Source: an uncultured Pseudomonadota bacterium (GTDB lineage: Bacteria > Oederibacteriota > Muellerivitia > Muellerivitales > Muellerivitaceae). From it: 64,000 nt of DNA. Where the stretch lies: contig CAWIIP010000004.1 of NCBI GenBank assembly GCA_963836235.1, positions 32,001 to 96,000 on the forward strand, given 5' to 3'. The notes under the pieces are model-generated. The model ran no database searches. It saw only the letters and a list, made by a program, of their open reading frames with translations, and was not told the origin of the DNA. This document shows positions 19,413 to 34,015 of this stretch, one piece after another (position 1 is the stretch's first letter; every line of letters starts with the position of its first letter). The position numbers were made by a program, and so were the translations under genes.

Positions 19413-22178
19413 ATGATCCTCCCTTATAAGACAATTTATATGGCGGTCTCAGCGATCTTGGTTTTATTTCTCCATGACCAGTCTTTTCTCCGGAAGGTCC
19501 CTCAGAACTCGGCCCTTTTACGAACCAGTAAGGCGGGTTACGGCCAGATCCCCCTCGCCTTTGAGGCCAACCAGGGCCAAACCGATCCTTCCGTTAGGTT
19601 CCTTGCCCTTGGAAATGGTTACAGCTTGTTCCTCACTCCCACCCAGGCGGTTTGGGCCCTGCGGGACCGCCCCCGTCGGACGAGGTCCCGTTCCGCTTCC
19701 CGGACTTCTCCCGAAAAAACAGACTATCTTTGGATGAGTCTCAAGGGGGCTGACCCCAGGTGCCGGGCCGAAGGTTTGGGAGAATTGCCGGGGAAGAGTA
19801 ATTACTTGGTGGGCCAGGACCCTTCCCGGTACAAGACCAATACCCCCCAATTTGCGAAGGTCAAATTCACCGGTGTCTATCCCCACATCGACCTTTTCTA
19901 TTACGGTTCCACCGGGGGAAAACTTGAGTACGATTTCGTCCTCCAACCCCACGCCCGCCCTGAGGACATCCGTCTCCAGTTCCGCGGCGCCAAGAAGTTG
20001 TGGTTGAGGGATGATGGCAGCTTGGAAGTGGCGATGGGCCTCAAAAAAATGTCGTTCCAACTTCCGGCGGTCTATCAGAGTGGCACCCAAGGCAGGGAAA
20101 CCTTGAAGGGGCGGTTCGTGCTGCGGTCGGGGAATGAGGTGGGGTTCGAAGTGGCGGGTTACGACCCCTCAAGGCCCCTGGTCATCGACCCAACCTTTAC
20201 CCTGGTTTATTCCACTTATATCGGTTCCACCGCCGCTTACTTTCATAACGAGCTCGCCGACTTTTGCGTGGACCCTTCCGGGTTCACTTATTTGGTCGAA
20301 CCGGGTCCTGGCGGTTTTCCTTATCCCACCACCTCGGGGGCTTTTCAAACGACGGACAAGGGCACGATCAACGCCATCATCGTGAAATTGAACCAAGCCG
20401 GGTCGGCGTTGGTTTACGCGACCTACCTGGGGGGATCCGTGGAGGATCAGTGCTTTTCCATCGCCGCTGACGCCGGGGGGAACGCCTACCTGACCGGTTT
20501 CGCCGGCTCGTCCGATTTTCCGACAACGCCGGGGGCCTACCGGGCCGGCCCGCCTGTCGGCCCCGACGCCTTCGTTGCCAAGCTCAATCCCACCGGGACC
20601 GCGTTGGTCTATTCCACCTTGCTCGGCGGGTCAAGCCAGGACGTAGGGAGGAGCATCGTGGTGGACAGTGACGGGGACGCCTATGTGGGCGGGTACACCC
20701 AATCCACCGATTTTCCCACCACCTCCGGAGCCTTTATGACCACGAAACCCAGCGGGAGCCAATCCCTTTTCGTCACGAAAGTAAATCCCACGGGGACCGC
20801 CTTGGTCTATTCCACCTACTTGGGTGGATCGGGGAACGACCAGTTGGACGCCCTCGCAATCGATGGGTCGGGCGACGCATATGTGACAGGCATCACTTCT
20901 TCCACGGATTTTCCCACGACATCGGGAGCCTACCGGACCACCGCCAGCGGCAGTTCGGATGCCTTCGTGACCAAGCTCAACCCCACGGGTACCGCTTTAG
21001 CCTATTCCACCTACTTGGGGGGCAGCCAGCAGGACGAAGGCCAAGCCATCGCAGTGGATGCCTCAGGTAGCGCCTATGTGACCGGTTATACGGCCTCCGC
21101 GGACTTTCCCACGACCCCGGGTGTTTTGGGCCTGAGCCTGACGGGGACTGAGAATTGTTTCGTGACGAAATTGAGTCCCGCGGGGAACAGCCTAGTCTTC
21201 TCCACTTATTTGGGGGGAAAAACGGTTGATCTGGGTTACGGCATCACCGTGGATGGGTCGGGCCAGGTCTATGTGGGGGGGCTCACGGGCTCGTCGGATT
21301 TCCCCACAACCCCAGGCGCGCTCAAAACGACCTTTATCAGCTCCACGACCTTTTTTTCGCTCCTGAACCCTACGGCCACTTCACTGCTCTATTCAACCTT
21401 TTGGGGAGGGTCCGGTGGCGAGGATGACGGGGCACGGATCGGATTGGATTCTTCCGGCGCCGTCTATCTGGGAGGGGGCACCTATACCAGCGATTACCCC
21501 ACGACTGCGGGGGCTTACGAAACAACTCATGCCGCCGATAGCGAGGACCTTTTCGTGGCCAAACTGGTGATGGGGATCACCAATTCCCCCACCGCGACCA
21601 ACAGCCCGTCACCCACACCAACCCTTTCCAGCACGGCTACTCCGACCTCGACCGGCAACGCCACCAACACCCCCACCTTCACTCTTACTTCTACCTTCAC
21701 CTCATCCATTACCGACACACCCACTCCGACCGGCAGCTGGACCTCAACTCCCACCGTGACCGAGACCTTTACCCCGACAGGGAGCTACACCTTGACCTTC
21801 ACCCAAACTCCCACGGCTACCTTGACCCCTACGCCGACCAATACACCGGCCCTCACTTTCACACCCACCGGCACGTCCACCCTGGGATCGTCTTCCTTTG
21901 GTTTCTGTCCCCCCTATCCCAACCCCTCGGATGGTTCGTCACCGGTTTCTTTTTGCGTCGATGTGCCCGAAGGGTCCTTGGTCGATCTGGGCATTTACAC
22001 CACGGCTTTCCGGAAGATCTACGGCCGCCACCCCACTCTTTCGGGCCAAAACTTCCTGAATTGGAACTTGAGGGATGATTGGGGGACTCCCGCAGCCAAC
22101 GGGGTTTATTACCTGAAAATTCAAGTTACGGGAATCCAACCCGTGACCAAGATCTTCAAAATACTGGTTATCCGTTAG
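19413..22178 (+). CDS. Secreted SBBP beta-propeller repeat protein with Thr/Pro linker and T9SS/FlgD-like C-terminal domain
   Basis: FEANQGQTD N-domain, LVYSTYLGG...DFPTT repeats, TPT linker, PYPNP...NGVYY...KILVIR. Confidence 0.88.
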   Translation: MILPYKTIYMAVSAILVLFLHDQSFLRKVPQNSALLRTSKAGYGQIPLAFEANQGQTDPSVRFLALGNGYSLFLTPTQAVWALRDRPRRTRSRSASRTSPEKTDYLWMSLKGADPRCRAEGLGELPGKSNYLVGQDPSRYKTNTPQFAKVKFTGVYPHIDLFYYGSTGGKLEYDFVLQPHARPEDIRLQFRGAKKLWLRDDGSLEVAMGLKKMSFQLPAVYQSGTQGRETLKGRFVLRSGNEVGFEVAGYDPSRPLVIDPTFTLVYSTYIGSTAAYFHNELADFCVDPSGFTYLVEPGPGGFPYPTTSGAFQTTDKGTINAIIVKLNQAGSALVYATYLGGSVEDQCFSIAADAGGNAYLTGFAGSSDFPTTPGAYRAGPPVGPDAFVAKLNPTGTALVYSTLLGGSSQDVGRSIVVDSDGDAYVGGYTQSTDFPTTSGAFMTTKPSGSQSLFVTKVNPTGTALVYSTYLGGSGNDQLDALAIDGSGDAYVTGITSSTDFPTTSGAYRTTASGSSDAFVTKLNPTGTALAYSTYLGGSQQDEGQAIAVDASGSAYVTGYTASADFPTTPGVLGLSLTGTENCFVTKLSPAGNSLVFSTYLGGKTVDLGYGITVDGSGQVYVGGLTGSSDFPTTPGALKTTFISSTTFFSLLNPTATSLLYSTFWGGSGGEDDGARIGLDSSGAVYLGGGTYTSDYPTTAGAYETTHAADSEDLFVAKLVMGITNSPTATNSPSPTPTLSSTATPTSTGNATNTPTFTLTSTFTSSITDTPTPTGSWTSTPTVTETFTPTGSYTLTFTQTPTATLTPTPTNTPALTFTPTGTSTLGSSSFGFCPPYPNPSDGSSPVSFCVDVPEGSLVDLGIYTTAFRKIYGRHPTLSGQNFLNWNLRDDWGTPAANGVYYLKIQVTGIQPVTKIFKILVIR

Positions 22179-22186
22179 GAACATGA

Positions 22187-24835
22187 ATGAAAAAACATCC
22201 AAGATCATTTGAATTTTACCGGCTCTTTTCTGTCATTTTTTTAGTTGGCGGATTTGTGGTCGTAATTTTTGATCCGAACCTTCTCGCCGGTATTTTTCAT
22301 CGGGCCGCTGCCCTGAAATCGACTCGACAAGATTCTTCCGGGGAAATGAAATTTAAAAGATCCTACGGCCAACTCCCATTGATCTTCGAACCCAACGAAG
22401 GCCAAACCGATCCCCGGGTGAGCTATTTCTGCCGGGGCGCGGGATACAGCCTATTCTTGACCCCGAAAGAAGCGGTGCTCACCTTAAGACAACCCGAACC
22501 ACCATCCCGCCATCCGGGCCGCGAGAAGGGCCAGGCCTTGCCTCTCGAACCGTCCCGGGTCCGGGAGAGGGTGTTGCGCATCAAGTTAAAAGAGGCCCAA
22601 TCGCCTTCCTCGGTGGAGGGGATGGATAAATTGGAAGGTACCAGCAATTATTTCATCGGCAAGGACCCCCGAAAATGGCGCACAGGGATCCCCCAATTCG
22701 CCAGGGTGAAATTAAAGGATGTTTATCCCGGCATCGACATCGTTTATTACGGCAACGGGGGAAAATTGGAGTATGACTTCGTGGTAAAACCGGGGGCCGA
22801 TCCGAGGTCGATCCAGATGGCTTTTGAGGGCACCCAAGGGATGAAGTTGGTCGATGGCGATTGGGTTTTGAAAGCGGGGAAAGACCAACTGGTTTTTAAA
22901 GCGCCCGTGATCTATCAGCCGCAAGGGGGCTCGCGCAGAAGGGTGGAGGGACGGTATGTGCGGATGGGGCCTCATCAGCTGGGTTTCCAGGTGGATGGCT
23001 ATGACCCGACGCGAACGCTTGTCATCGATCCCGTATTAGATTATTCGACCTATTTGAGCGGGAGCGCCTCGAACCAGAGCTTCGGGATCGCGGTGAACTC
23101 CAGCGGAAATGCTTATGTGATCGGACAGGTTACTTCCATTACTTTCCCAACGACGGCAGGGGCCTTCCAGACCGCCCCCCCTGGCGGTACCTCGGACGCT
23201 TTTGTCTCGGAGCTGAACGCCGCCGGGACGGGGTTGGTCTATTCGACCTATTTGGGCGGGACGGGGATAGAGGGCGCCATGAAGATTGCGGTGGACGCCG
23301 CGGGAAATGCCTATGTGGTGGGAGTCACCAGTTCCACCGATTTTCCCATCACGCCCGGAGCCTTCCAAACGGCCTCCACGGGGGTTACCTATAACATTTA
23401 TTTGACCAAATTGAATCCCGCCGGGACCGCCCTCGTTTATTCCACGTACTTTGGCGGGAATGCCGACACGCAATGCGACGCCCTCGCAGTCGACAACACC
23501 GGGCAGGCTTATATCGGCGGCTTTTCCAGCGCCACCAATTTACCCACAACGGCCGGCGCCTATCAAAGCACGATGAAGGGAAGTACCAACGCCTATGTGG
23601 CAAAGTTCAACGCCCTCGGGACGGCTTTGGTGTACATGACTTATCTGGGAGGGACCAATTATGACGGTCTTTCTGGGATCGCGTTGGACCCTTCGGGGGA
23701 CGCTTATCTCTGCGGCGGGACCCGCTCCGTCGATTTCCCCACGACCGCCGGAGTTTTTAAATCGGCTTATGGCGGGGGAATCAATGATGGCTTTGTGGCC
23801 AAGTTGAATCCCACTGGTACTGCCTTGTTGTACTCTACTTACCTGGGTGGAAGCGGGAACGACAGCATCTCCGGTATCAAAATAGATTCTTCGGGAGACG
23901 CCTATATTGCCGGCGGCACCACTTCCGTGAATTTCCCCACCACCGCGGGCGCTTATCAAGGCGCGTTGGCGGGAAATACCAACGTCTTCATCACTGAATT
24001 AAACCCAACAGCCACTTCATTGATTTACTCCACCCTCCTGGGAGGCAGTAATAATGATGCGGCCTATGGAATGGATATGGATTCCTCCTATAGGGTCTAC
24101 GTGACGGGGCAGATCAATTCGGTGAATTTTCCAACCACCGCGGGGGCGTTCCAAACGGTTTTTGGGGGTTTCGACGATTCCTTTATCAGTGTCATGAACC
24201 CGACCGGCACGGCCTTGGTCTATTCCAGTTACCTCGGAGGGAGCAGTGAGGACGTGGGCTATGGCATTGCCTTGGACCCGGCCGGGAACGCTTATCTGGC
24301 AGGCTATACCTGGTCGACCGACTTTCCCACGACGGCGGGCGCTTACCAACCGGTGTACGGCGGCGGAAGTTCCAACGCCTTTGCCGCTAAATTCGACGTG
24401 ACGACCTTTAGCATCCCCGCCATCACCGCAACCCCGACCTCCACTCCGACGAGTAGTCCAACTTCAACGCCCACACCCTTGGTTACCAGCACGCCCACTT
24501 CCACACCGACCTTTACGCCGACCGCCCTGATGACCAACACGCTCACACCCGGTTCAACTTCAGGCTGTGTGATCCATGTTTGGCCCAATCCTTATAGCTT
24601 GAAATACGCCCATGACCATGCCTTGAAGTTCAGCTGCCTGCCCGCGAACGCCGAGGTTTATATCTATACGGTATCGGGCGAGTTGGTGGCCCAGTTCGGC
24701 CCCTCCGGCGACCCCACCGAATGGAAAGATGGGAAAAATCTCAATGGGGCCAGTGTTTCCTCCGGCATTTATTATTACGCTATTCAGAATGGCCAAACCC
24801 TCTTGCAACGGGGTAAGTTTTTGATCACACCTTAA
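22187..24835 (+). CDS. Secreted SBBP beta-propeller repeat protein (paralogue) with Thr/Pro linker and C-terminal sorting-like domain
   Basis: FEPNEGQTD, repeated YSTYLGG, WPNP...IYTVSGELV...SGIYYY. Confidence 0.88.
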   Translation: MKKHPRSFEFYRLFSVIFLVGGFVVVIFDPNLLAGIFHRAAALKSTRQDSSGEMKFKRSYGQLPLIFEPNEGQTDPRVSYFCRGAGYSLFLTPKEAVLTLRQPEPPSRHPGREKGQALPLEPSRVRERVLRIKLKEAQSPSSVEGMDKLEGTSNYFIGKDPRKWRTGIPQFARVKLKDVYPGIDIVYYGNGGKLEYDFVVKPGADPRSIQMAFEGTQGMKLVDGDWVLKAGKDQLVFKAPVIYQPQGGSRRRVEGRYVRMGPHQLGFQVDGYDPTRTLVIDPVLDYSTYLSGSASNQSFGIAVNSSGNAYVIGQVTSITFPTTAGAFQTAPPGGTSDAFVSELNAAGTGLVYSTYLGGTGIEGAMKIAVDAAGNAYVVGVTSSTDFPITPGAFQTASTGVTYNIYLTKLNPAGTALVYSTYFGGNADTQCDALAVDNTGQAYIGGFSSATNLPTTAGAYQSTMKGSTNAYVAKFNALGTALVYMTYLGGTNYDGLSGIALDPSGDAYLCGGTRSVDFPTTAGVFKSAYGGGINDGFVAKLNPTGTALLYSTYLGGSGNDSISGIKIDSSGDAYIAGGTTSVNFPTTAGAYQGALAGNTNVFITELNPTATSLIYSTLLGGSNNDAAYGMDMDSSYRVYVTGQINSVNFPTTAGAFQTVFGGFDDSFISVMNPTGTALVYSSYLGGSSEDVGYGIALDPAGNAYLAGYTWSTDFPTTAGAYQPVYGGGSSNAFAAKFDVTTFSIPAITATPTSTPTSSPTSTPTPLVTSTPTSTPTFTPTALMTNTLTPGSTSGCVIHVWPNPYSLKYAHDHALKFSCLPANAEVYIYTVSGELVAQFGPSGDPTEWKDGKNLNGASVSSGIYYYAIQNGQTLLQRGKFLITP

Positions 24836-24838
24836 CGT

Positions 24839-24870
24839 GTTGTCCACGACGGGGACCCGTCGTGGACAAG
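24839..24870. repeat. 32-bp palindromic site P1
   Basis: GTTGTCCACGAC-GGGGACCC-GTCGTGGACAAG; starts 3 bp after the SBBP stop codon. Confidence 0.9.
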
Positions 24871-24884
24871 GATAATAGGGACAC

Positions 24885-24913
24885 TTGACGTATAACGCTC
24901 TCCGTTATACCCT
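24885..24913 (+). promoter_or_regulatory. higBA sigma70 promoter with overlapping operator palindrome; probably leaderless
   Basis: TTGACG-17bp-TACCCT, 6 bp before the ATG; inverted repeat GTATAACG-N5-CGTTATAC at 24890-24910. Confidence 0.7.
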
Positions 24914-24919
24914 TAAAGA

Positions 24920-25201
24920 ATGATCCGAAGCTTTAAGGGTAAAGAAACCGAGCTTATCTTCAACCGGACTTTTTCCCATCGGCTGCCCCACGACATTCAA
25001 ACGGTGGCCTTTCGGAAACTCCGAATGATAAGCCGGGCGGTATCCTTAAACGATTTGAGGGTTCCCCCAGCAAACCATTTGGAAGCCCTGCACGGGAACC
25101 GTAAGGGCCAACACAGCATTCGGATTAATAATCAATGGCGTGTTTGTTTTGAATGGCGCGCGGGGGACGCACATAACGTTGAGATCGTGGATTACCACTA
25201 G
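24920..25201 (+). CDS. higB: HigB-family (RelE-like) toxin
   Basis: MIRSF...DLRVPPANHLEALHGNRKGQHSIRINNQWRVCFEW...VEIVDYH. Confidence 0.94.
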   Translation: MIRSFKGKETELIFNRTFSHRLPHDIQTVAFRKLRMISRAVSLNDLRVPPANHLEALHGNRKGQHSIRINNQWRVCFEWRAGDAHNVEIVDYH

Positions 25202-25209
25202 GAGGAAAA

Positions 25210-25512
25210 ATGAAGACAGCTAAAATTCCGCCGCTACATCCAGGCGAAGTTCTTCAAGAGGAGTTTTTAGCTCCCATGAAGATCAGCCAAAATAAGCTGG
25301 GTCAGGACCTGGGGGTCCCTCCCCGCCGCATCAATGAAATCATCCAGGGGAAAAGGGGCATCACAGCCGATACCGCCTTGCGCTTGGCCAGGTATTTCAA
25401 CATGTCCCCCCAATTTTGGCTTGGCTTGCAAATGGATTTTGAGTTGGACCAGGAAGCAGACCATCTTGCATCCCGCCTCAAAAAGGAAGTCCACGTCTAC
25501 CAGGCTGTTTAA
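25210..25512 (+). CDS. higA: HigA-family HTH antitoxin
   Basis: HPGEVLQEEFL, RINEIIQGKRGITADTALRLARYF, FWLGLQ. Confidence 0.94.
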   Translation: MKTAKIPPLHPGEVLQEEFLAPMKISQNKLGQDLGVPPRRINEIIQGKRGITADTALRLARYFNMSPQFWLGLQMDFELDQEADHLASRLKKEVHVYQAV

Positions 25513-25526
25513 GATCGGTTCCATGG

Positions 25527-25558
25527 GTTGTCCACGACGGGGACCCATCGTGGACAGG
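25527..25558. repeat. 32-bp palindromic site P2
   Basis: GTTGTCCACGAC-GGGGACCC-ATCGTGGACAGG. Confidence 0.9.
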
Positions 25559-25608
25559 TAAAAGGGGTATAATCCAATCTTCGTTACGCTTCTATAATTG
25601 AGGCAAGT

Positions 25609-26742
25609 ATGAATCGACTTTTCCTTATCGCGGTAATCCTCTTGATCGGCCTGTTCCCCCTGGCTTGCCAGAAGACCTATACGTTAGGCCCTCTGAGCGT
25701 TCCAACTCCCGCTCCACCTCCCACCAAAACCTTTACCGCCACAGGTTCGCCTACCCCCACCTGTAGCGGGAAAATCGTTTCGACCTTGGCGGGGTCCGGG
25801 TTGGTTGGAGCCGTCAACGCCACTGGTACAGCCGCGTCGTTCAATTTCCCTACGGGGGCCGCCGTGGATTCTTCCGGGAATGTTTATGTGGCGGATACTT
25901 ACAACAACCTGATACGGGAAATCACGTCAGGTGGGGTAGTAACGACCTTGGCCGGGTCCGGGGCGATTGGAGCCGTCAACGCCACCGGGACCGCCGCGTC
26001 CTTTCATACTCCCTACGCCCTGGCGGTGGATTCTTCGGGCAATGTTTATGTCGCGGATACCATTAACAACCTGATCCGGATGATAACCCCCGGTGGGGTG
26101 GTGACCACCTTGGCCGGAGGCGGGCCTTGTTGCGCGGTAAACGCAACGGGAACCGCCGCTTCGTTCAACGGACCTTGGGGAATAGCCGTCGATGCTTCCG
26201 GAAACGTTTATGTGGCGGATCAAACCAACGACCTCATCCGGAAAATTACCCCGGGCGGCGTCGTGACGACCCTGGCGGGATCGGGTGCCTGGGGGGCCAC
26301 CAACGGAACCGGAACCGCCGCGTCTTTTTATAATCCCGTTGGACTCGCGGTCGATTCTTCGGGGAATGTTTATGTCGCGGATTCTTACAACGACATGATC
26401 CGGAAAATCACTCCGGGAGGCGTGGTGACGACCCTGGCGGGGTCCGGGTCAGCCGGCTCGGCCGACGGAATCGGGACCGCGGCGTCTTTCAATATGCCCC
26501 TTGGGGTCGCGGTGGATTCCTCCGGAAATGTTTACGTGACGGACGCGTGGAACAACCTGATCCGTGAAATTACCCCAGGGGGCGTGGTGACGACCCTGTT
26601 GGGAAAAGTGGGGGTCGCGGGTTCAACCAACGGAAATTGCTACCAGGCCCTTTTCAACCAGCCTGATGGAATCGCGGTGGATTCCTCCGGGAAAATCTAC
26701 ATCGCGGACCAGGACAACAACCTGATCCGGGAAATCCAATAA
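25609..26742 (+). CDS. NHL-repeat beta-propeller lipoprotein
   Basis: Lipobox PLAC; six AVDSSGNVYVAD..NNLIR.IT repeats. Confidence 0.9.
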   Translation: MNRLFLIAVILLIGLFPLACQKTYTLGPLSVPTPAPPPTKTFTATGSPTPTCSGKIVSTLAGSGLVGAVNATGTAASFNFPTGAAVDSSGNVYVADTYNNLIREITSGGVVTTLAGSGAIGAVNATGTAASFHTPYALAVDSSGNVYVADTINNLIRMITPGGVVTTLAGGGPCCAVNATGTAASFNGPWGIAVDASGNVYVADQTNDLIRKITPGGVVTTLAGSGAWGATNGTGTAASFYNPVGLAVDSSGNVYVADSYNDMIRKITPGGVVTTLAGSGSAGSADGIGTAASFNMPLGVAVDSSGNVYVTDAWNNLIREITPGGVVTTLLGKVGVAGSTNGNCYQALFNQPDGIAVDSSGKIYIADQDNNLIREIQ

Positions 26743-26771
26743 ATTCCAATTCGCCCTTTTGATATAAAAAA

Positions 26772-26803
26772 TCTGTCCACTACGGGGACCCGTCGTGGAC
26801 AAC
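26772..26803. repeat. 32-bp palindromic site P3
   Basis: TCTGTCCACTAC-GGGGACCC-GTCGTGGACAAC. Confidence 0.9.
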
Positions 26804-26812
26804 AAAGAATTG

Positions 26813-26849
26813 CCTGCACATGCCTGTCGCAAAAAGGATAGTGTGCAAC
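26813..26849. repeat. 37-bp direct repeat R1
   Basis: CCTGCACATGCCTGTCGCAAAAAGGATAGTGTGCAAC; identical copies at 27821 and 28778. Confidence 0.97.
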
Positions 26850-26850
26850 C

Positions 26851-27120
26851 GATGCTCTTTTTGATGCTTCGGCACCTTTTGTGAGTGAAGTAGGTAGTGA
26901 TTTGGCCGTTGGCGCATTGGAAGCAGGGGGAGCAGCATTGGCCTCAGTTTCGGGGCCTTTGGCTCCGCTGGTGGAAGAGGGAACACAAGCGCTTGCACCC
27001 CTTGCCTATGTTGCCGGTTCGACCGCGGCATCGGCAGGTTGGAAATATATTCAACAACAAGCCGCTCCCGTAATAAACAATGCGATAAGCACCATTAGTG
27101 GGTGGTTTTCAGGACCGTGA
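26851..27120 (+). pseudogene. 3' gene fragment with an Ala/Gly-rich hydrophobic C-terminus, cut by R1
   Basis: Frame is open from inside R1 (DALFDASAPFVSEVG...GWFSGP*); no convincing RBS/start. Confidence 0.6.
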
Positions 27121-27147
27121 TTTTTCTTTTTCAATTTTAAAGATTAA

Positions 27148-27633
27148 GTGAAGTGGTTTGAAATGAAAAACACAAAAGTTTATGGATCTAAATTCACTGT
27201 TTTGCTCATGGGACTTTTTTTAGGGATGAGCCTTTTTGTTCTTGTGAAGAAATTGGGGGAACCAGATGCCGAAATCACGAAACCAATCTTAATAGTTGTC
27301 TTTGGTCTGTTTTTATTTTTGGTGGCTTTTAATCGAGCATTAACCCCTCGATGGACCTATGACGAGAGTGGAGTCACGATGAAAAACTCATTTAAGCCAA
27401 AAGATGAAAATTTTTGGCCTTGGAGTGAAGTTGTTGGCATTTATAGACGCGCTTATTGGTCGTGGAATTACTACATCGATTTTAAACGCGGGGGTGTCAT
27501 GGTTAGTTTTCTCTGGACTAGCAATCATTTAAGGATTTTAGTGGATGCGGTACATTTTGCACAAAAAAATAACCCAAATGTGGAAATTACACCTTCTGTT
27601 TTGGGAAAAGTTAAAAAATATTTTAACCGATAG
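27148..27633 (+). CDS. AT-rich 2-TM membrane protein with a soluble C-terminal domain (immunity-like)
   Basis: Two hydrophobic helices, then a WTYDESGV...WPWSEV pattern; start GTG 27148 or ATG 27163. Confidence 0.7.
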   Translation: MKWFEMKNTKVYGSKFTVLLMGLFLGMSLFVLVKKLGEPDAEITKPILIVVFGLFLFLVAFNRALTPRWTYDESGVTMKNSFKPKDENFWPWSEVVGIYRRAYWSWNYYIDFKRGGVMVSFLWTSNHLRILVDAVHFAQKNNPNVEITPSVLGKVKKYFNR

Positions 27634-27689
27634 ATATTTTTGAAAAGTAACTTTTGGGCAACAGTTAGTAGATTGAAAGGCGTTTGTTA

Positions 27690-27820
27690 ATGAATGGCGA
27701 AGTTTTTAAAAATTTAAAAAGTGCCAAGAGATTATGGGGCTTATTGCTGTTTCTCACTTTGGGAAACAGCTCAATATCTTTCGCCCAGACAGCCACGCCT
27801 ACCCCCATGCCCACGCCGAC
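27690..27820 (+). pseudogene. 5' gene fragment (signal peptide plus TPTP linker) cut by R2
   Basis: GAAAGG RBS; MNGEVFKNLKSAKRLWGLLLFLTLGNSSISFAQTATPTPMPTP runs into R2 and stops at 27860. Confidence 0.65.
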
Positions 27821-27857
27821 CCTGCACATGCCTGTCGCAAAAAGGATAGTGTGCAAC
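27821..27857. repeat. 37-bp direct repeat R2
   Basis: Identical to R1. Confidence 0.97.
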
Positions 27858-27864
27858 TAACTAA

Positions 27865-28635
27865 TCACTTTTCCGAAGATTTTAATTCATTCAATATTTC
27901 TTTTGATTTCTTTTCCAACTCTTGTCGATTCCCCCTAAGACTCAAGTTCGTTTTATGATATTGTTCAACAGTTTGCTTATATGAAATTCTCAATTTTAAT
28001 CTCTTCTCACGGTTCAAAAAATATTGATCGGCGGTACTTTTCGAACCAAACGTTTTAATTTTGCGATCTTTATACTCTCCATATATTTTGGAGCCCGTTA
28101 TTTTTTTGAATATTTGATCCGTTAATTCGTTTGCGTTTTTCAGACCACCTTTATGCCAAGTCAATTTAGAATAAGTCCCATTAATCATCGCCTCTTCCCT
28201 AATCCATTGACAAAGATCATCAGTTTTACCATCGCCCAATTCGTTTCCTAATTGATCCGCTTTTTCAATTCCCTCTTTTTGTTTTGACTTCACATTCATT
28301 TGATCTATCGGCATACTTTCGGGATTATTGTGTGCACCCATCGAAGTTAGATCGTTGGATAAATCTTTAAGTTTTTTAATTAAAGCCATTTGATCATCAG
28401 TTAAGTTCAACGATGACACCGATATTAAATCTTCATCCACTTTTGGTAAAAAACCGGATGCACTCCAAATCTTTATTGCTCGAATTTTTTCGGCAGACAC
28501 TGGCAAAACCTCAGAAGTAATGGCGGGTGTTTGAGCAATAACCCATCTAATAGGCGCAGCCCAAAGAACCAATATTTCAAAAGCAAAAATCATTTTCCGC
28601 CATTTTTGAAATTTCATCCCTGTTTTGAAATCCAT
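27865..28635 (-). CDS. AT-rich exported helical hypothetical protein
   Basis: 256-aa ORF, signal-like N-terminus (..VIAQT), GGGGGA RBS; stop lies 7 bp from R2. Confidence 0.75.
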   Translation of the reverse strand: MDFKTGMKFQKWRKMIFAFEILVLWAAPIRWVIAQTPAITSEVLPVSAEKIRAIKIWSASGFLPKVDEDLISVSSLNLTDDQMALIKKLKDLSNDLTSMGAHNNPESMPIDQMNVKSKQKEGIEKADQLGNELGDGKTDDLCQWIREEAMINGTYSKLTWHKGGLKNANELTDQIFKKITGSKIYGEYKDRKIKTFGSKSTADQYFLNREKRLKLRISYKQTVEQYHKTNLSLRGNRQELEKKSKEILNELKSSEK

Positions 28636-28652
28636 TACATCCCCCTGATGTG

Positions 28653-28677
28653 GTTTGCCCTAAGCGTTGTCGAAGGG
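28653..28677. repeat. Single REP-like element
   Basis: GTTTGCCCTAAGCGTTGTCGAAGGG resembles the widespread CCCTGAGCTTGTCGAAGGG-type intergenic repeat; only one copy seen here. Confidence 0.35.
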
Positions 28678-28777
28678 TTGGTGTTGTTTAAACGAAGGTG
28701 AGCGAGGTAAAAGCGAAAACTTTTTCAGTTGGACTATATCAAAACGATAAATATTTACTATGTTTAAAGGTAAATGG

Positions 28778-28814
28778 CCTGCACATGCCTGTCGCAAAAA
28801 GGATAGTGTGCAAC
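28778..28814. repeat. 37-bp direct repeat R3
   Basis: Identical to R1 and R2. Confidence 0.97.
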
Positions 28815-28952
28815 GGTTCAAGCTCTTATTCAAAATAATGATGGGAATGGGCGAAAGTGGGGTTTCGGGCCTATTTTAGAAGCCTGAAGAAATCATTTAA
28901 AAGAAAAGCAGTTATGCCATTTTTTGGAAATAAAAGATAATGGCAATATGTA

Positions 28953-28984
28953 GTTGTCCATAGTGGGGACCCTGATTGGACAAC
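28953..28984. repeat. 32-bp palindromic site P4 (degenerate)
   Basis: GTTGTCCATAGT-GGGGACCC-TGATTGGACAAC; outer 8-bp arms and 8-bp core are retained. Confidence 0.85.
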
Positions 28985-29018
28985 CCAATCCCTTCAACCC
29001 GCTATTTGAGGATGTGAG

Positions 29019-29366
29019 TTAAAATGGCACCAGCACAAATCTCCCATAGGCAACGAATAGGACCAGGAGAGCGGGCACCAAAGCCCAGAGAAAGCCCTGA
29101 AACTTGACGCCGGTCAACGCGGAAACTGATACCGTTTCGACGGCTACGCAGACTGCCACGATGGGGGTTAGGATGGGCAGTATCCCGATTGCTCCAGGCA
29201 AAACCAGGCCTAAGGCGAACAGGGCCTGGAGCACACCCAGAGCCATCCAGGCGGGCTTTGGCAGAATTTTCAACCAGACCCCCGGGACTTTAAATACCAT
29301 CCAGCTCCCGCCCATCAAATAGTACAAGCACAGCAAAATTTGAAGCACCCATAGCAGAATGTTCAT
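29019..29366 (-). CDS. DoxX-like 4-TM membrane protein
   Basis: MNILLWVLQILL...GLVLP...FVAYGRF pattern; GAGGAG RBS. Confidence 0.8.
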   Translation of the reverse strand: MNILLWVLQILLCLYYLMGGSWMVFKVPGVWLKILPKPAWMALGVLQALFALGLVLPGAIGILPILTPIVAVCVAVETVSVSALTGVKFQGFLWALVPALLVLFVAYGRFVLVPF

Positions 29367-29490
29367 CCTAGTCTCCTCGAATTCGCCGGCGCGCGGCCAG
29401 CTTATTTTAAAACGCTGTCATCGCCTAAGGTACAAAGGGGCCCGACCTTTTTTCCACCTCCGTGTCGTAACGGAGAGGACGGGCGAATTA

Positions 29491-29517
29491 TGTCACACCC
29501 TTCCCCCTTGATTCGTC
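29491..29517 (+). promoter_or_regulatory. ECF41-type promoter driving the sigma gene
   Basis: TGTCACA-N16-CGTC. Confidence 0.8.
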
Positions 29518-30790: not shown

Positions 30791-33700
30791 ATGAAACGCC
30801 ATCCTCCCATTCGAAACGTTTTCATGGCCCTAGGCTTTCTTAGTCTCGCGGGTTTGGGGACCGCCCCCCTTTCCCCTCTCAAAAATGTTTCCCGTAAAAC
30901 CCCTGCCCGGCTTGCGCCCTCCCAACCCCTCCACCAGGTGGCCAATTACGGCAACCTGCCCCTGGCCTTTGAGCCCAATCAGGGCCAAACCGACCCCCAA
31001 GTCCAGTTTCTCTCGCGCGGAAGGGGCTACATTCTTTTTATTACTCCCCAAGGAGCGATCCTCTCGCTTAAAAAACCAAAGGCTCTCCCGCAAAAGTTAA
31101 CGGCTAAGGGGTCCCGGCGCGGGGCCAAGGCCCTTCCTACGCAGGACAACTCGCCCCCCACCGTCTTGCGCTTGGAAACGGAGGGAGCCCAACCCGGCGT
31201 GAAATTCGAAAGCCAGGAAAAGCTTCCCGGCGTCTCCAATTATTTCATCGGCAAGGACCCTTCCAAATGGATCAAGGGAGTCCCCCAATATTCCAAGGTG
31301 ACCGCCCGGGAACTTTATCCCGGCGTGGATATGGTTTATTACGGAAACCAGGGGAAGCTGGAATATGATTTCGTCGTCCAGCCGGGGGCGGACCCCGGCG
31401 CCATCCGCCTGGGGATAAAGGGAGCGCAGGGTGTCCAGGTGAACAGCCAGGGGGATTTGGAACTGGGGACGAAACAAGGGACGGTGGTTTTCCGGGCGCC
31501 CACGGTGTACCAGGAAACCGGGGGGGTGAAAAGCCCGGTGACGGGCCGCTACAAGCTAAAGGAGGGAAACAAGGTTGGTTTTGAGGTGGAAGATTATGAC
31601 GCTACCAAGCCCCTGGTGATTGACCCAATCCTGGATTATTCCACTTACCTGGGCGGGATCTACACGGACTGGGCCTATGGCGTGGCGGCGGATTCATTGG
31701 GGGATGCCTATATCACCGGCAGCACCCAGTCCACCGACTTTCCAACCACGGCTGGGGCCTACCAAACCACTTTGGGGGGGACCGGGAACGCCTTCATCAC
31801 CGAGTTTGACCCCTCCGGCACCGCCTTGGTCTTTTCCGACTACCTGGGTGGAAACGGTTCTGATACGGGCTGGTCCATCGCCTTGGATTCATCGGCCGAT
31901 ATCTTCGTAACAGGCCAAACCAATTCCACTAATTTTCCCACCACCTCTAATGCGGTCCAGGCTACTTTGAATGGCGCCGTAAACGCCTTCGTGACCAAGC
32001 TCCCGCCCGGGGGCGGCGCCTTGGACTACTCCACTTACCTGGGTGGTTCCGGATCCGACTACGGTTATGCGATCGCCGTGGACTCTTGCGGGAATCTTTA
32101 CGTCACGGGGTCAACTTCCTCCCCCAATTTCCCCTTGCTCAACCCCATCCAAAGTACCCTGGGCTCTGCTTCGGGCGGCAATGCCTTCGTCACTAAGATC
32201 AACGCCGGGAGCGCATTGGCATACTCCACTTACCTCGGCGGCAGCGGAAACAATGGGGATATTGGCTATGCCATCGCGGTGGACGACGGCGGTGACGCCT
32301 GGGTGACGGGCTCTACGGCTTCGTCCGATTTCCCCATCGTCAACGCCTTTCAGTCCACGTTCGGAGGCAATCAAAACGGCTTTATCACCGAAGTCAACGC
32401 GGCTGGCACCGCCTGGGTCTATTCCACCTATCTCGGCGGCTTGTCGCAAACCAGCTACTTAACCTTGCAAACCGGCGGCCACGTATTCGATATTTGCTAC
32501 GGCATTGCTTTGGACGGAAGCCAGAACATTTACGTGGCGGGGTACACCACCTCGCCGAACTTTCCCACCCTGAACCCCATCCAACCCACCAACACGAACC
32601 CCTTTGGGATGGGTTTCGTGTCCGAGCTGGCCGCCGGGGGGGCGTCGCTGGTCTATTCCACCTATTTGGGGGGGACTGGAGACAGCGCCGTTGGCACCCA
32701 GGACGAAGCGAATGGCATCCGGGTCGATGGAAGCGGAAACGCCTATGTGGCGGGCGAAACCGGTTCCTTTGATTTCCCCACGGTCAACCCCCTCCAGTCG
32801 ACCGATTTACAACCAAAGGCGAAAGGGAACAACACCACTTTCGTGACCATAGTGGCCGCCCAGGGAACGTCCTATCTTTTTTCCACCTACTGGGGCGGCT
32901 CGATTGAAGATGGGGCTGAGGCCCTGGCATTGGATCCGGCGAACAATATCTACGTCGCGGGCTATAGCTTTTCCAACGATTTCCCCGTGACGAACGCTCT
33001 CCAGGCGGGTTTGGCAGGGGTCATTGATGCCGTTATTTTTAAGATCGCCCAGTCCCCCTCCACCGCGACGGGCACGAATCCGGTGGTGCGGGTTGGCTCC
33101 ACCGCTCCATCCCCTCCTATCACGACAGTGGGGCAGGGGGCCACCAACGTGCCGGTATTGCAGGTGAGCGTTTCCAACCAAAGCGTGGAAACGGTGCAAT
33201 TGACTGGTGCGACCTTGACCGAATCGGGGACAGGTCTTGCCGCAACGGGAATCGCCTCCTTAACGGTTTATGTGATCGTAGGCGGGTCACCCGTGTCTAT
33301 AGGGCAGGTTTCCTCGCCTTTTTCCTTGTCCAACAGTACAACGGTGCCCCTGCCCAACCTTAATCTTCCTCCCTCATCCGCCCAGACCATCCTGGTGACT
33401 TTTAACTTCAGTCCCGCGGCTTCCCTGGGCACTTATACTTTAAGCCTCGCCAATTCCTGCGCATTATCCGGCCAGGGCTTGACCTCGGGCAAGGGCATCC
33501 AATCGACGGGAGCACCGGTGAACGGGGCGGTCTTGACGGTGGTCCCACCCACGGCCACTTTCACCGCGACCTCCACCCCCACGGCGACGAGCACTCCCTC
33601 CACCATGGCAACGCCTACCCGCACTTATACTCCGTCTTCCACTCCCACCTTCACCCCTACGGTTACCATCACATCGACGGCTACTCCCACCCCAACCCAT

Positions 33701-34015
33701 TCCCCCACGGCCACGCCCGTGGTCAACTCCGTCACCATCGGCTACCCTTACCCCGACCCCGTCACCGGCCCCGGGGTTGTTTCCATGCCCGTCACCGCCC
33801 CCGCGGGTTCCACCGCCCATTGGGCCGTCTTTACGGTGGGTTTCCGGAAAGTTTATGAGAATACCCAAAACCTCCCCGGTACCAGTGGCACCTTGTCCTG
33901 GAACCAGGAGGACAGCTGGGGTTCCCCCGTGTCCAACGGGCTTTATTACATCCGCGTTGAGGTTGCGGGACAGGATTCCGGTACGAAAATTGTGAAGGTC
34001 CTGGTGATCCGGTAA
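30791..34015 (+). CDS. Secreted SBBP beta-propeller protein with extra Ig-like domain, Thr/Pro linker and C-terminal sorting-like domain
   Basis: FEPNQGQTD, YSTYLGG repeats, YPDP...NGLYY...KVLVIR. Confidence 0.88.
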   Translation: MKRHPPIRNVFMALGFLSLAGLGTAPLSPLKNVSRKTPARLAPSQPLHQVANYGNLPLAFEPNQGQTDPQVQFLSRGRGYILFITPQGAILSLKKPKALPQKLTAKGSRRGAKALPTQDNSPPTVLRLETEGAQPGVKFESQEKLPGVSNYFIGKDPSKWIKGVPQYSKVTARELYPGVDMVYYGNQGKLEYDFVVQPGADPGAIRLGIKGAQGVQVNSQGDLELGTKQGTVVFRAPTVYQETGGVKSPVTGRYKLKEGNKVGFEVEDYDATKPLVIDPILDYSTYLGGIYTDWAYGVAADSLGDAYITGSTQSTDFPTTAGAYQTTLGGTGNAFITEFDPSGTALVFSDYLGGNGSDTGWSIALDSSADIFVTGQTNSTNFPTTSNAVQATLNGAVNAFVTKLPPGGGALDYSTYLGGSGSDYGYAIAVDSCGNLYVTGSTSSPNFPLLNPIQSTLGSASGGNAFVTKINAGSALAYSTYLGGSGNNGDIGYAIAVDDGGDAWVTGSTASSDFPIVNAFQSTFGGNQNGFITEVNAAGTAWVYSTYLGGLSQTSYLTLQTGGHVFDICYGIALDGSQNIYVAGYTTSPNFPTLNPIQPTNTNPFGMGFVSELAAGGASLVYSTYLGGTGDSAVGTQDEANGIRVDGSGNAYVAGETGSFDFPTVNPLQSTDLQPKAKGNNTTFVTIVAAQGTSYLFSTYWGGSIEDGAEALALDPANNIYVAGYSFSNDFPVTNALQAGLAGVIDAVIFKIAQSPSTATGTNPVVRVGSTAPSPPITTVGQGATNVPVLQVSVSNQSVETVQLTGATLTESGTGLAATGIASLTVYVIVGGSPVSIGQVSSPFSLSNSTTVPLPNLNLPPSSAQTILVTFNFSPAASLGTYTLSLANSCALSGQGLTSGKGIQSTGAPVNGAVLTVVPPTATFTATSTPTATSTPSTMATPTRTYTPSSTPTFTPTVTITSTATPTPTHSPTATPVVNSVTIGYPYPDPVTGPGVVSMPVTAPAGSTAHWAVFTVGFRKVYENTQNLPGTSGTLSWNQEDSWGSPVSNGLYYIRVEVAGQDSGTKIVKVLVIR

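Follow-up and report, generated by a model that had tools for sequence, protein, structure and literature searches.

Arrays of single-gene cassettes bounded by a short palindromic site in an uncultured soil and peat bacterium, with signs of exchange at the site center

Integrons offer the classic case of single genes captured by site-specific recombination, and the attC sites that end their cassettes share the architecture R''-L''...L'-R' with the consensus RYYYAAC...GTTRRRY. In the pdif modules of Acinetobacter, the flanking C/D and D/C sites are oppositely oriented, and in the crossover sites of serine recombinases a central dinucleotide sets the polarity of the site. To our knowledge, no invertase, resolvase or integrase has been described that acts on arrayed single-gene cassettes through one universal site. 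Here, we analyzed a stretch of 64,000 nucleotides (positions 32,001 to 96,000 of contig CAWIIP010000004.1, assembly GCA_963836235.1; hereafter the window) from an uncultured bacterium of soil and peat, whose metagenome-assembled genome (MAG; G000) consists of five contigs (C1 to C5). The window contains an array, part of contig C4, in which copies of a palindromic site separate small gene cassettes, and this report concerns the cassette with an NHL-repeat gene that lies between the sites P2 (25527-25558, forward strand) and P3 (26772-26803, forward strand). Comparison of this cassette with a second copy in the same genome, and of other near-identical cassette pairs across genomes, makes it very likely that such cassettes recombine by a crossover in the center of the site.

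The cassette carries as its cargo one gene (25609..26742, forward strand) for an NHL-repeat lipoprotein-like protein of 377 amino acids (aa) (Pfam NHL, 3.8e-46; TEN_NHL, 9e-36), with internal repeats of 162 nt. The stretch 25528..26803 (forward strand), which spans the cassette with all of P3 and all but the first base of P2, is 100% identical (blastn, 1276/1276) to C2 ~1195350-1196625 (minus strand), inside the largest array of the genome, and the identity ends abruptly on both sides in unrelated flanks. In C4 the upstream neighbor of the NHL copy is a higBA cassette, in C2 it is a BrnT/RHH pair, and the downstream cassettes are unrelated; no other cassette is duplicated among the arrays of this genome. 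P2 (GTTGTCCACGACGGGGACCCATCGTGGACAGG) differs from the 32-mer form of the site only at positions 21, 31, and 32, and P3 (TCTGTCCACTACGGGGACCCGTCGTGGACAAC) only at positions 1, 2, and 10. Because the second copy shares the right-half variants of P2 and the rare left half of P3 amid different neighbors, these variants are linked to the NHL gene. Furthermore, a homologue (89%) of the BrnT/RHH cassette upstream of the C2 copy lies in locus L101 of another genome, where the same downstream left half CTTGTCCACGAC is followed by a different right half (GTCGTGGACAGA), without A21, and by a different next cassette. L101 keeps the left half but not the A21/GG right half, and the P2 right half is therefore part of the NHL cassette. 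P2 can thus be read as a hybrid of the left half and core of a resident site, on the higBA side, with the right half ATCGTGGACAGG of the NHL cassette, and P3 as a hybrid of the cassette's left half TCTGTCCACTAC with the right half of the resident site. If the exchange took place at the central GA, the mobile unit would be 1245 bp long (25543..26787, forward strand) and would comprise the P2 right half, the NHL gene, and the P3 left half.

The site itself is 28-32 bp long and its conserved positions 3-30 read TGTCCAC GAC GGGGACCC GTC GTGGACA. In the source genome, we counted 62 copies at up to 7 mismatches to the 32-mer (74 at up to 9), and these approximately 62 copies lie in 12 arrays on four contigs. 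Positions 1, 2, 10-12, 21-24, 31, and 32 vary among them and the flanks are unconserved, while the core positions 13-20 are kept in 57-62 of the 62 copies (G16 in 62/62 and A17 in 60/62). The symmetry is 15-2-15, with the GA at positions 16-17 as the sole asymmetric element. Each array has one polarity, set by the central GGGGACCC, and adjacent sites were co-oriented in 283 of 284 pairs from 173 partly overlapping loci; loci from the collection scan overlap, so that counts over loci include repeats. Polarity in the source genome also tracks GC skew and gene direction: all sites on C4 are +, all on C5 are -, and the switch on C2 falls between 1.20 and 1.48 Mb. In the window, the palindrome occurs far above chance (0.00 matches expected from 100 shuffles), and the first copy, P1, is predicted to form a DNA hairpin of -15.8 kcal/mol (z = -4.6). 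No T-tract terminator or promoter was called at the sites, the downstream sequence being A-rich, and Rfam gave no family match in window positions 24000-29500. The site is present in 18 of the 24 other genomes of the family that were searched and in the sole genome of a second family; among 15 genomes from eight further families of the phylum, none had it. Across 185,579 species of a sequence collection, the exact 28-mer was found in 51 stretches, mostly from MAGs labeled candidate division FCPU426, with some other or vague labels.

Cassettes beyond the NHL pair show where the exchange falls. The comparison covered site-bearing loci (denoted by L-numbers), 79 taken from other genomes and a further 78 from contigs of metagenomes. 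Where an aligned stretch covered 60% or more of a cassette of the source genome (11 cassettes, 75-100% identity), it ran at most 7 nt past the outer site edges in 26 of 26 cases; the loci mostly continue on both sides, and in three cases one side is the end of the locus. Eight pairs were at least 95% identical, namely the NHL pair, C4 856659/L124, C2 1193138/L069, and five further locus pairs. In particular, C4 856659-857693 matches L124/L125 at 100% identity for 1020 nt, beginning at left-site position 4 and ending at right-site position 20, after which the downstream right halves are GGATTGGACAGG and ATCGTGGACATC. Likewise, the cassettes of L067 and L239 are 100% identical, with a break after position 20. 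In L335/L354 (99.5%), the upstream sites are identical in their right halves and differ at positions 1 and 12 of their left halves, while the downstream sites have identical left halves and different right halves. L334 and L383 (96.7%) have the rare right half GTAGTGGACAGC in common, and L362/L379 form another pair at 99.5% identity. Over the eight pairs, the downstream left half is identical in 7/8 and the downstream right half is different in 7/8. The upstream context was different and readable in five pairs, of which four have identical right halves and all five different left halves; the exception is L102/L385 (95%), whose members differ in the 5' region and in the upstream right half. Judged from these alignments, the exchange lies between site positions 12 and 21, inside GGGGACCC (positions 13-20), an interval of 9 bp being the limit of resolution of the breakpoints.

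The first-pass annotation of this stretch had proposed P2 and P3 as attL/attR-type hybrids on the basis of their half-site pattern, with deviations from the consensus confined to the cassette-facing halves, right in P2 and left in P3, and with complementary cassette-side variants (CTGTCCA/TGGACAG). Both parts of this description proved correct, and the proposed hybrids are supported by the second NHL copy, the BrnT/RHH homologue, and the other near-identical pairs. The half-site pattern by itself is no evidence beyond chance. A cassette with variant inner and perfect outer halves was found in 2/43 cases, at the chance level of ~2.5% expected per cassette, and among the 62 copies in the source genome, 16 combine a perfect left with a variant right half, six have a variant left and a perfect right half, and no copy has two perfect halves. 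The P2 right half ATCGTGGACAGG is a common variant (5/62 copies; A21 alone, 13/62), and the P3 left half occurs only in the two NHL cassette copies. The perfect site that the outer halves would rebuild is a coincidence of the window copy: position 1 of P2 is G in the window copy and C in the C2 copy, and the perfect 32-mer occurs nowhere in the source genome. A compensatory C:G pair had also been suggested and did not hold up, as positions 2 and 31 pair in 56% of 148 cassettes vs 51.5 +/- 3.5% in shuffled sets (p = 0.12). Covariation between the half-sites across a cassette was not found in these 148 cassettes (all variable pairs, p = 0.24).

The 54 inter-site segments of the source genome range from 266 to 4779 bp, with a median of 860 bp, and mostly hold a single gene or a toxin-antitoxin pair. 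The largest open reading frame (ORF) runs with the site in 50 of them, and the four reversed cassettes retain the polarity of their array. The median distance from a site to the ORF start is 49 nt, and that from the ORF end to the following site is 15.5 nt. The cargo includes toxin-antitoxin systems (HigBA, BrnT/RHH, PIN + MazE, and PemK), immunity-like proteins (SUFU, WapI, and DUF4265), GNAT, HAD, and LOG enzymes, small membrane proteins, and many proteins without a Pfam match, together with a few insertion sequence (IS) elements and a group II intron. No gene was common to the flanks of the 12 arrays.

These observations are best explained, and in our judgment probably so, by insertion of the NHL cassette through a conservative exchange at the site center, with a 278-aa serine recombinase as the most likely enzyme. 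The NHL gene, the P2 right half, and the P3 left half would form one mobile cassette that entered a resident copy of the site by conservative site-specific recombination within GGGGACCC, leaving two hybrid sites. Cassettes would reassort singly between arrays and between genomes, i.e., the source genome and related FCPU426 genomes, and a circular intermediate would be the simplest route. Such a central conservative exchange explains the hybrid sites, the arrays with one site per junction, and the constant polarity. The comparisons directly show identity limited to cassettes, the half-site partition, the crossover interval, and the constant site polarity; the circle and the enzyme are inferred. 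The recombinase would cut at the central GA, which would set the polarity of the site.

The assignment of the enzyme is plausible but tentative. The source genome has two PF00239 genes, one of which encodes this protein of 278 aa with Resolvase and Recombinase domains and without zinc ribbon or coiled coil. The gene (C2 163827-164660), whose product has its catalytic serine in the motif VRVSSKEQ, ends 32 nt from the terminal site of the array at C2 164696-168038 and converges on that site. Orthologues of 275-281 aa with 74-81% identity were found in four more genomes of other genera, and in 4/5 carrier genomes a terminal hybrid site, made of a left half, the core, and a variant right half, lies directly 3' of the recombinase gene. 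In addition, ~105 nt of the 3' end of the gene remains beside another terminal site (C1 399374), and G018 carries a fragment of the gene in the same arrangement. The dN/dS of 0.08-0.16 indicates purifying selection, with synonymous sites saturated. Both of the 100%-identical transfers that involve the source genome took place within or between genomes that carry the recombinase gene. The idea that the short recombinase is one part of a split gene was rejected, as no C-terminal half was found elsewhere with the 515-aa paralogue of the genome and nine full-length relatives as queries.

Several observations weigh against this account. Of 31 genomes of the family, only five carry an intact gene for the short recombinase, and the site-rich genomes G005 (98% complete), G010 (99%), G021 (90%), and G023 (89%) gave no PF00239 match. 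G018, the richest in sites, has only the fragment mentioned above and carries two other serine recombinase genes. Only two arrays of the source genome are anchored to the recombinase gene. The recombinase could instead act as the integrase of some larger element for which the site is just a target, as its gene adjoins, in two genomes, a ~300-aa gene with a putatively ArdC-like start. Both NHL copies come from one MAG, so that an artifact of assembly or strain mixing is possible. Furthermore, the empty-site allele and the circle junction by which the first-pass annotation had proposed to check its reading were both missing from the source genome and 412 loci, when searched with junctions built from window slices. 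The 3' end of the NHL gene joined to the P3 left half gave 0 exact matches in metagenome contigs. In a genome of the same genus and four others, synteny comparison found only ~70% NHL paralogues and isolated sites, a setting in which an empty-site allele is not assessable. Public reads contained small parts of the window in 10 runs, and the four runs placed on positions 23800-29300 gave short contigs at a depth of 2-4, none spanning P2 or P3, which are uninformative on the empty site and the circle.

The same central crossover might instead be catalyzed by a tyrosine recombinase, either a Xer-like protein on a dif-like 11-6-11 site (TGTCCACGACG-GGGACC-CGTCGTGGACA) or an integrase of ~367 aa. 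We regard this as rather unlikely, though the site parses as 11-6-11 or 11-8-11 like dif and lox. Tyrosine recombinases occur in 26 of the 31 family genomes and could serve arrays in genomes without a serine recombinase; one ~367-aa integrase lies ~5.4 kb past the distal end of the largest array, and the single Xer-like gene found in the source genome (353 aa, C1 328834-329895) is consistent with the identical arms of the site. However, none of the eight PF00589 genes adjoins any of the 12 arrays, and the tyrosine integrase family is also present in G009 and G017, which lack the site. The central region of the site is palindromic save for its middle 2 bp, and a palindromic center is unusual for the spacers of tyrosine recombinase sites. 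An integron integrase was not detected in the source genome either, where the best TIGR02249 score was 40.9 bits against a cut-off of 265. A reading that needs no dedicated recombinase, in which REP-like hairpins let cassettes be swapped by homologous recombination or gene conversion across ~28 bp, gains from the 20-32 bp of flanking identity at every cassette boundary, the stable hairpins, and breakpoints resolved only to 9 bp. We consider it improbable because the arms are inverted copies and the 2-bp asymmetry would go unread: homology exchange should invert cassettes and mix polarity, yet the adjacent sites are almost without exception co-oriented. Moreover, every informative breakpoint is central and none lies in the equally conserved outer boxes, a length of 28 bp is at or under the usual minimum for RecA-dependent exchange, and the Y1 (RAYT-like) transposase is absent from the site-rich genomes G018, G001, and G023.

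Recombination of a folded single strand, as in integrons, or cleavage by an HUH/Y1 enzyme would account for a site that is a near-perfect hairpin and for arrays that resemble integrons in size, gene content, and ORF placement. A group II intron is inserted twice in the site, and class C introns insert at attC sites. Integron-type exchange, however, predicts a boundary at one outer edge of the site, whereas here both inner halves move with the cassette. The site has no extrahelical bases, and its GTT...AAC order is the reverse of R''...R' in attC; IntI is missing, and the distribution of the Y1 enzyme does not follow that of the sites. This mechanism is thus very improbable. The remaining alternative is that nothing moved and that the P2 and P3 variants reflect normal point variation within a palindromic terminator or operator, their pattern being coincidental. 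The pattern does occur at the chance rate, and A21 and T12, which lie at CpG steps, recur in many copies. This reading is hardly credible against a second copy that is 100% identical with different neighbors and the many cassette-limited homologies across genomes, nor do the terminator, promoter, and Rfam results given above favor it.

The arrays share several features with integrons and clusters of attC sites lacking integron integrases (CALINs): co-oriented and mostly single-ORF cassettes, each ending in a palindromic site; a cargo rich in toxin-antitoxin systems, acetyltransferases, immunity-like proteins, and unknowns; many arrays without an adjoining recombinase; and a group II intron in the site. 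By inspection against the known features of attC, the site differs in having near-perfect symmetry over 28-32 bp, whereas attC sites are imperfect, 57-141 bp long, and bear extrahelical bases. The cassette boundary appears to be central, with two half-sites per cassette, and not at the outer-edge G|TT of R', and twelve dispersed arrays stand in place of one platform. The system therefore falls outside the integrons on three counts: IntI, the attC architecture, and the edge boundary. The Acinetobacter pdif modules of XerC/XerD, which flank resistance and toxin-antitoxin modules (PMC12907356, PMC11705084), are similar in that short sites of 28 bp bound small modules, in varied contexts and without a recombinase of their own. 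In the present arrays, unlike pdif modules, the sites are direct and have identical arms, and a single Xer-like gene was found. In the sites at which serine recombinases act (hix/gix, res site I, and the att sites of large serine integrases; PMC5062993), inverted half-sites likewise surround an asymmetric dinucleotide. The apparent exchange in the present arrays also maps to the center, and a Resolvase-family protein is encoded beside terminal sites. The candidate differs from known serine systems in corresponding to the N-terminal half of a large serine recombinase without zinc ribbon and coiled coil; its cleavage would fall at the GA.

Composite staphylococcal cassette chromosome (SCC) islands and the ssrA islands of Dehalococcoides also consist of tandem units split by repeated att sites, some without a recombinase. 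Unlike the present arrays, in which a free-standing palindrome recurs in 12 places, they are anchored at one gene end (rlmH, ssrA, or tRNA) by gene-derived att sites and have units of several kb. Repetitive extragenic palindromic (REP) elements and their associated tyrosine transposases (RAYTs) are comparable in that a short extragenic palindrome occurs in tens of lineage-specific copies; here, in contrast, the copies bound exchangeable cassettes with fixed polarity. A RAYT/Y1 origin was considered and rejected, as the Y1 query found no match in G018 (94 site hits), G001, G023, or G013 and the three Y1 genes of the source genome do not lie beside sites. In some relatives, a 317-aa Y1-transposase-like gene has multiplied (29 matches in G042 and 19 in G012; also noted in G016 and others), and the reading frame of many full-length Y1-like copies contains one TAG or two TGA codons. 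We found no description of such arrays in the literature searched, which excluded subscription journals. We read the system as integron-like with different parts, its cassette arrays being probably made by site-specific recombination.

Within the window, the array begins with P1 (24839-24870, forward strand; one mismatch to the 32-mer), directly 3' of a gene for an 882-aa beta-propeller-repeat protein. P1 and P2 enclose the toxin-antitoxin cassette with higB (24920-25201) and higA (25210-25512), at 24920..25512 on the forward strand (Pfam HigB-like_toxin, 1.1e-19; HTH_3, 8.7e-10). To the right of P3, a degenerate fourth site, P4 (28953..28984, forward strand; eight mismatches), ends a segment of 2.2 kb. 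Three large paralogous beta-propeller-repeat (SBBP-like) proteins of 921, 882, and 1074 aa with Pro/Thr-rich linkers are encoded on the flanks of the array (window 19413-24835 and 30791-34015). A repeat of 37-38 nt (...CCTGCACATGCCTGTCGCAAAAAGGATAGTGTGCAAC) has three copies ~1 kb apart right of P3 (26812-26849, 27820-27857, and 28777-28814) and 10 copies in the source genome; one contig from a public run joins position 27671 to a copy of it.

Some copies of the site are interrupted or altered. Two 99.85% identical copies of the group II intron lie inside the site, between the core GGGGACCC and the right half (C2 1476543-1478501 and C1 ~223030-224990); they match Rfam RF02005 and RF00029 and contain a reverse transcriptase/maturase ORF. 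In L069, a different intron-like 3' end precedes a half-site. Variants in which ATTCGAC... follows the left half and core occur at C2 ~427144 (minus strand), C2 1231182, and C2 1943062, and the C2 ~427144 site has a 23-nt insert between the core and an intact right half. Among the tyrosine integrases of the source genome, six are paralogues of 366-386 aa with 57-70% mutual identity (C2 508543, C5 272301, C4 244739, C2 1373842, C2 1185612, and C4 195984). The one at C2 1185612 has 88-90% orthologues in six other genomes of five other genera and is unusually conserved for an integrase.

Taken further, the data raise the possibility, which we put forward with reserve, that FCPU426 bacteria possess a gene-capture system that evolved independently of integrons. 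In such a system, a minimal serine recombinase of 278 aa, with only the catalytic and recombinase domains, would act in trans on a universal palindromic site of ~30 bp with a central GA. Single-gene cassettes would be excised from and inserted at any of dozens of such sites and would pass from genome to genome, and group II introns would home to the site as parasites. The partition of variants between half-sites gives a testable map of the position at which the DNA is cut, and a compact recombinase acting on one short symmetric site would, if confirmed, be a simple tool for DNA assembly. A second solution to single-gene capture, with another site geometry, another exchange point, and probably another enzyme class, would show that cassette platforms arose repeatedly, and it would explain gene-by-gene exchange in an uncultured phylum of soil and peat.

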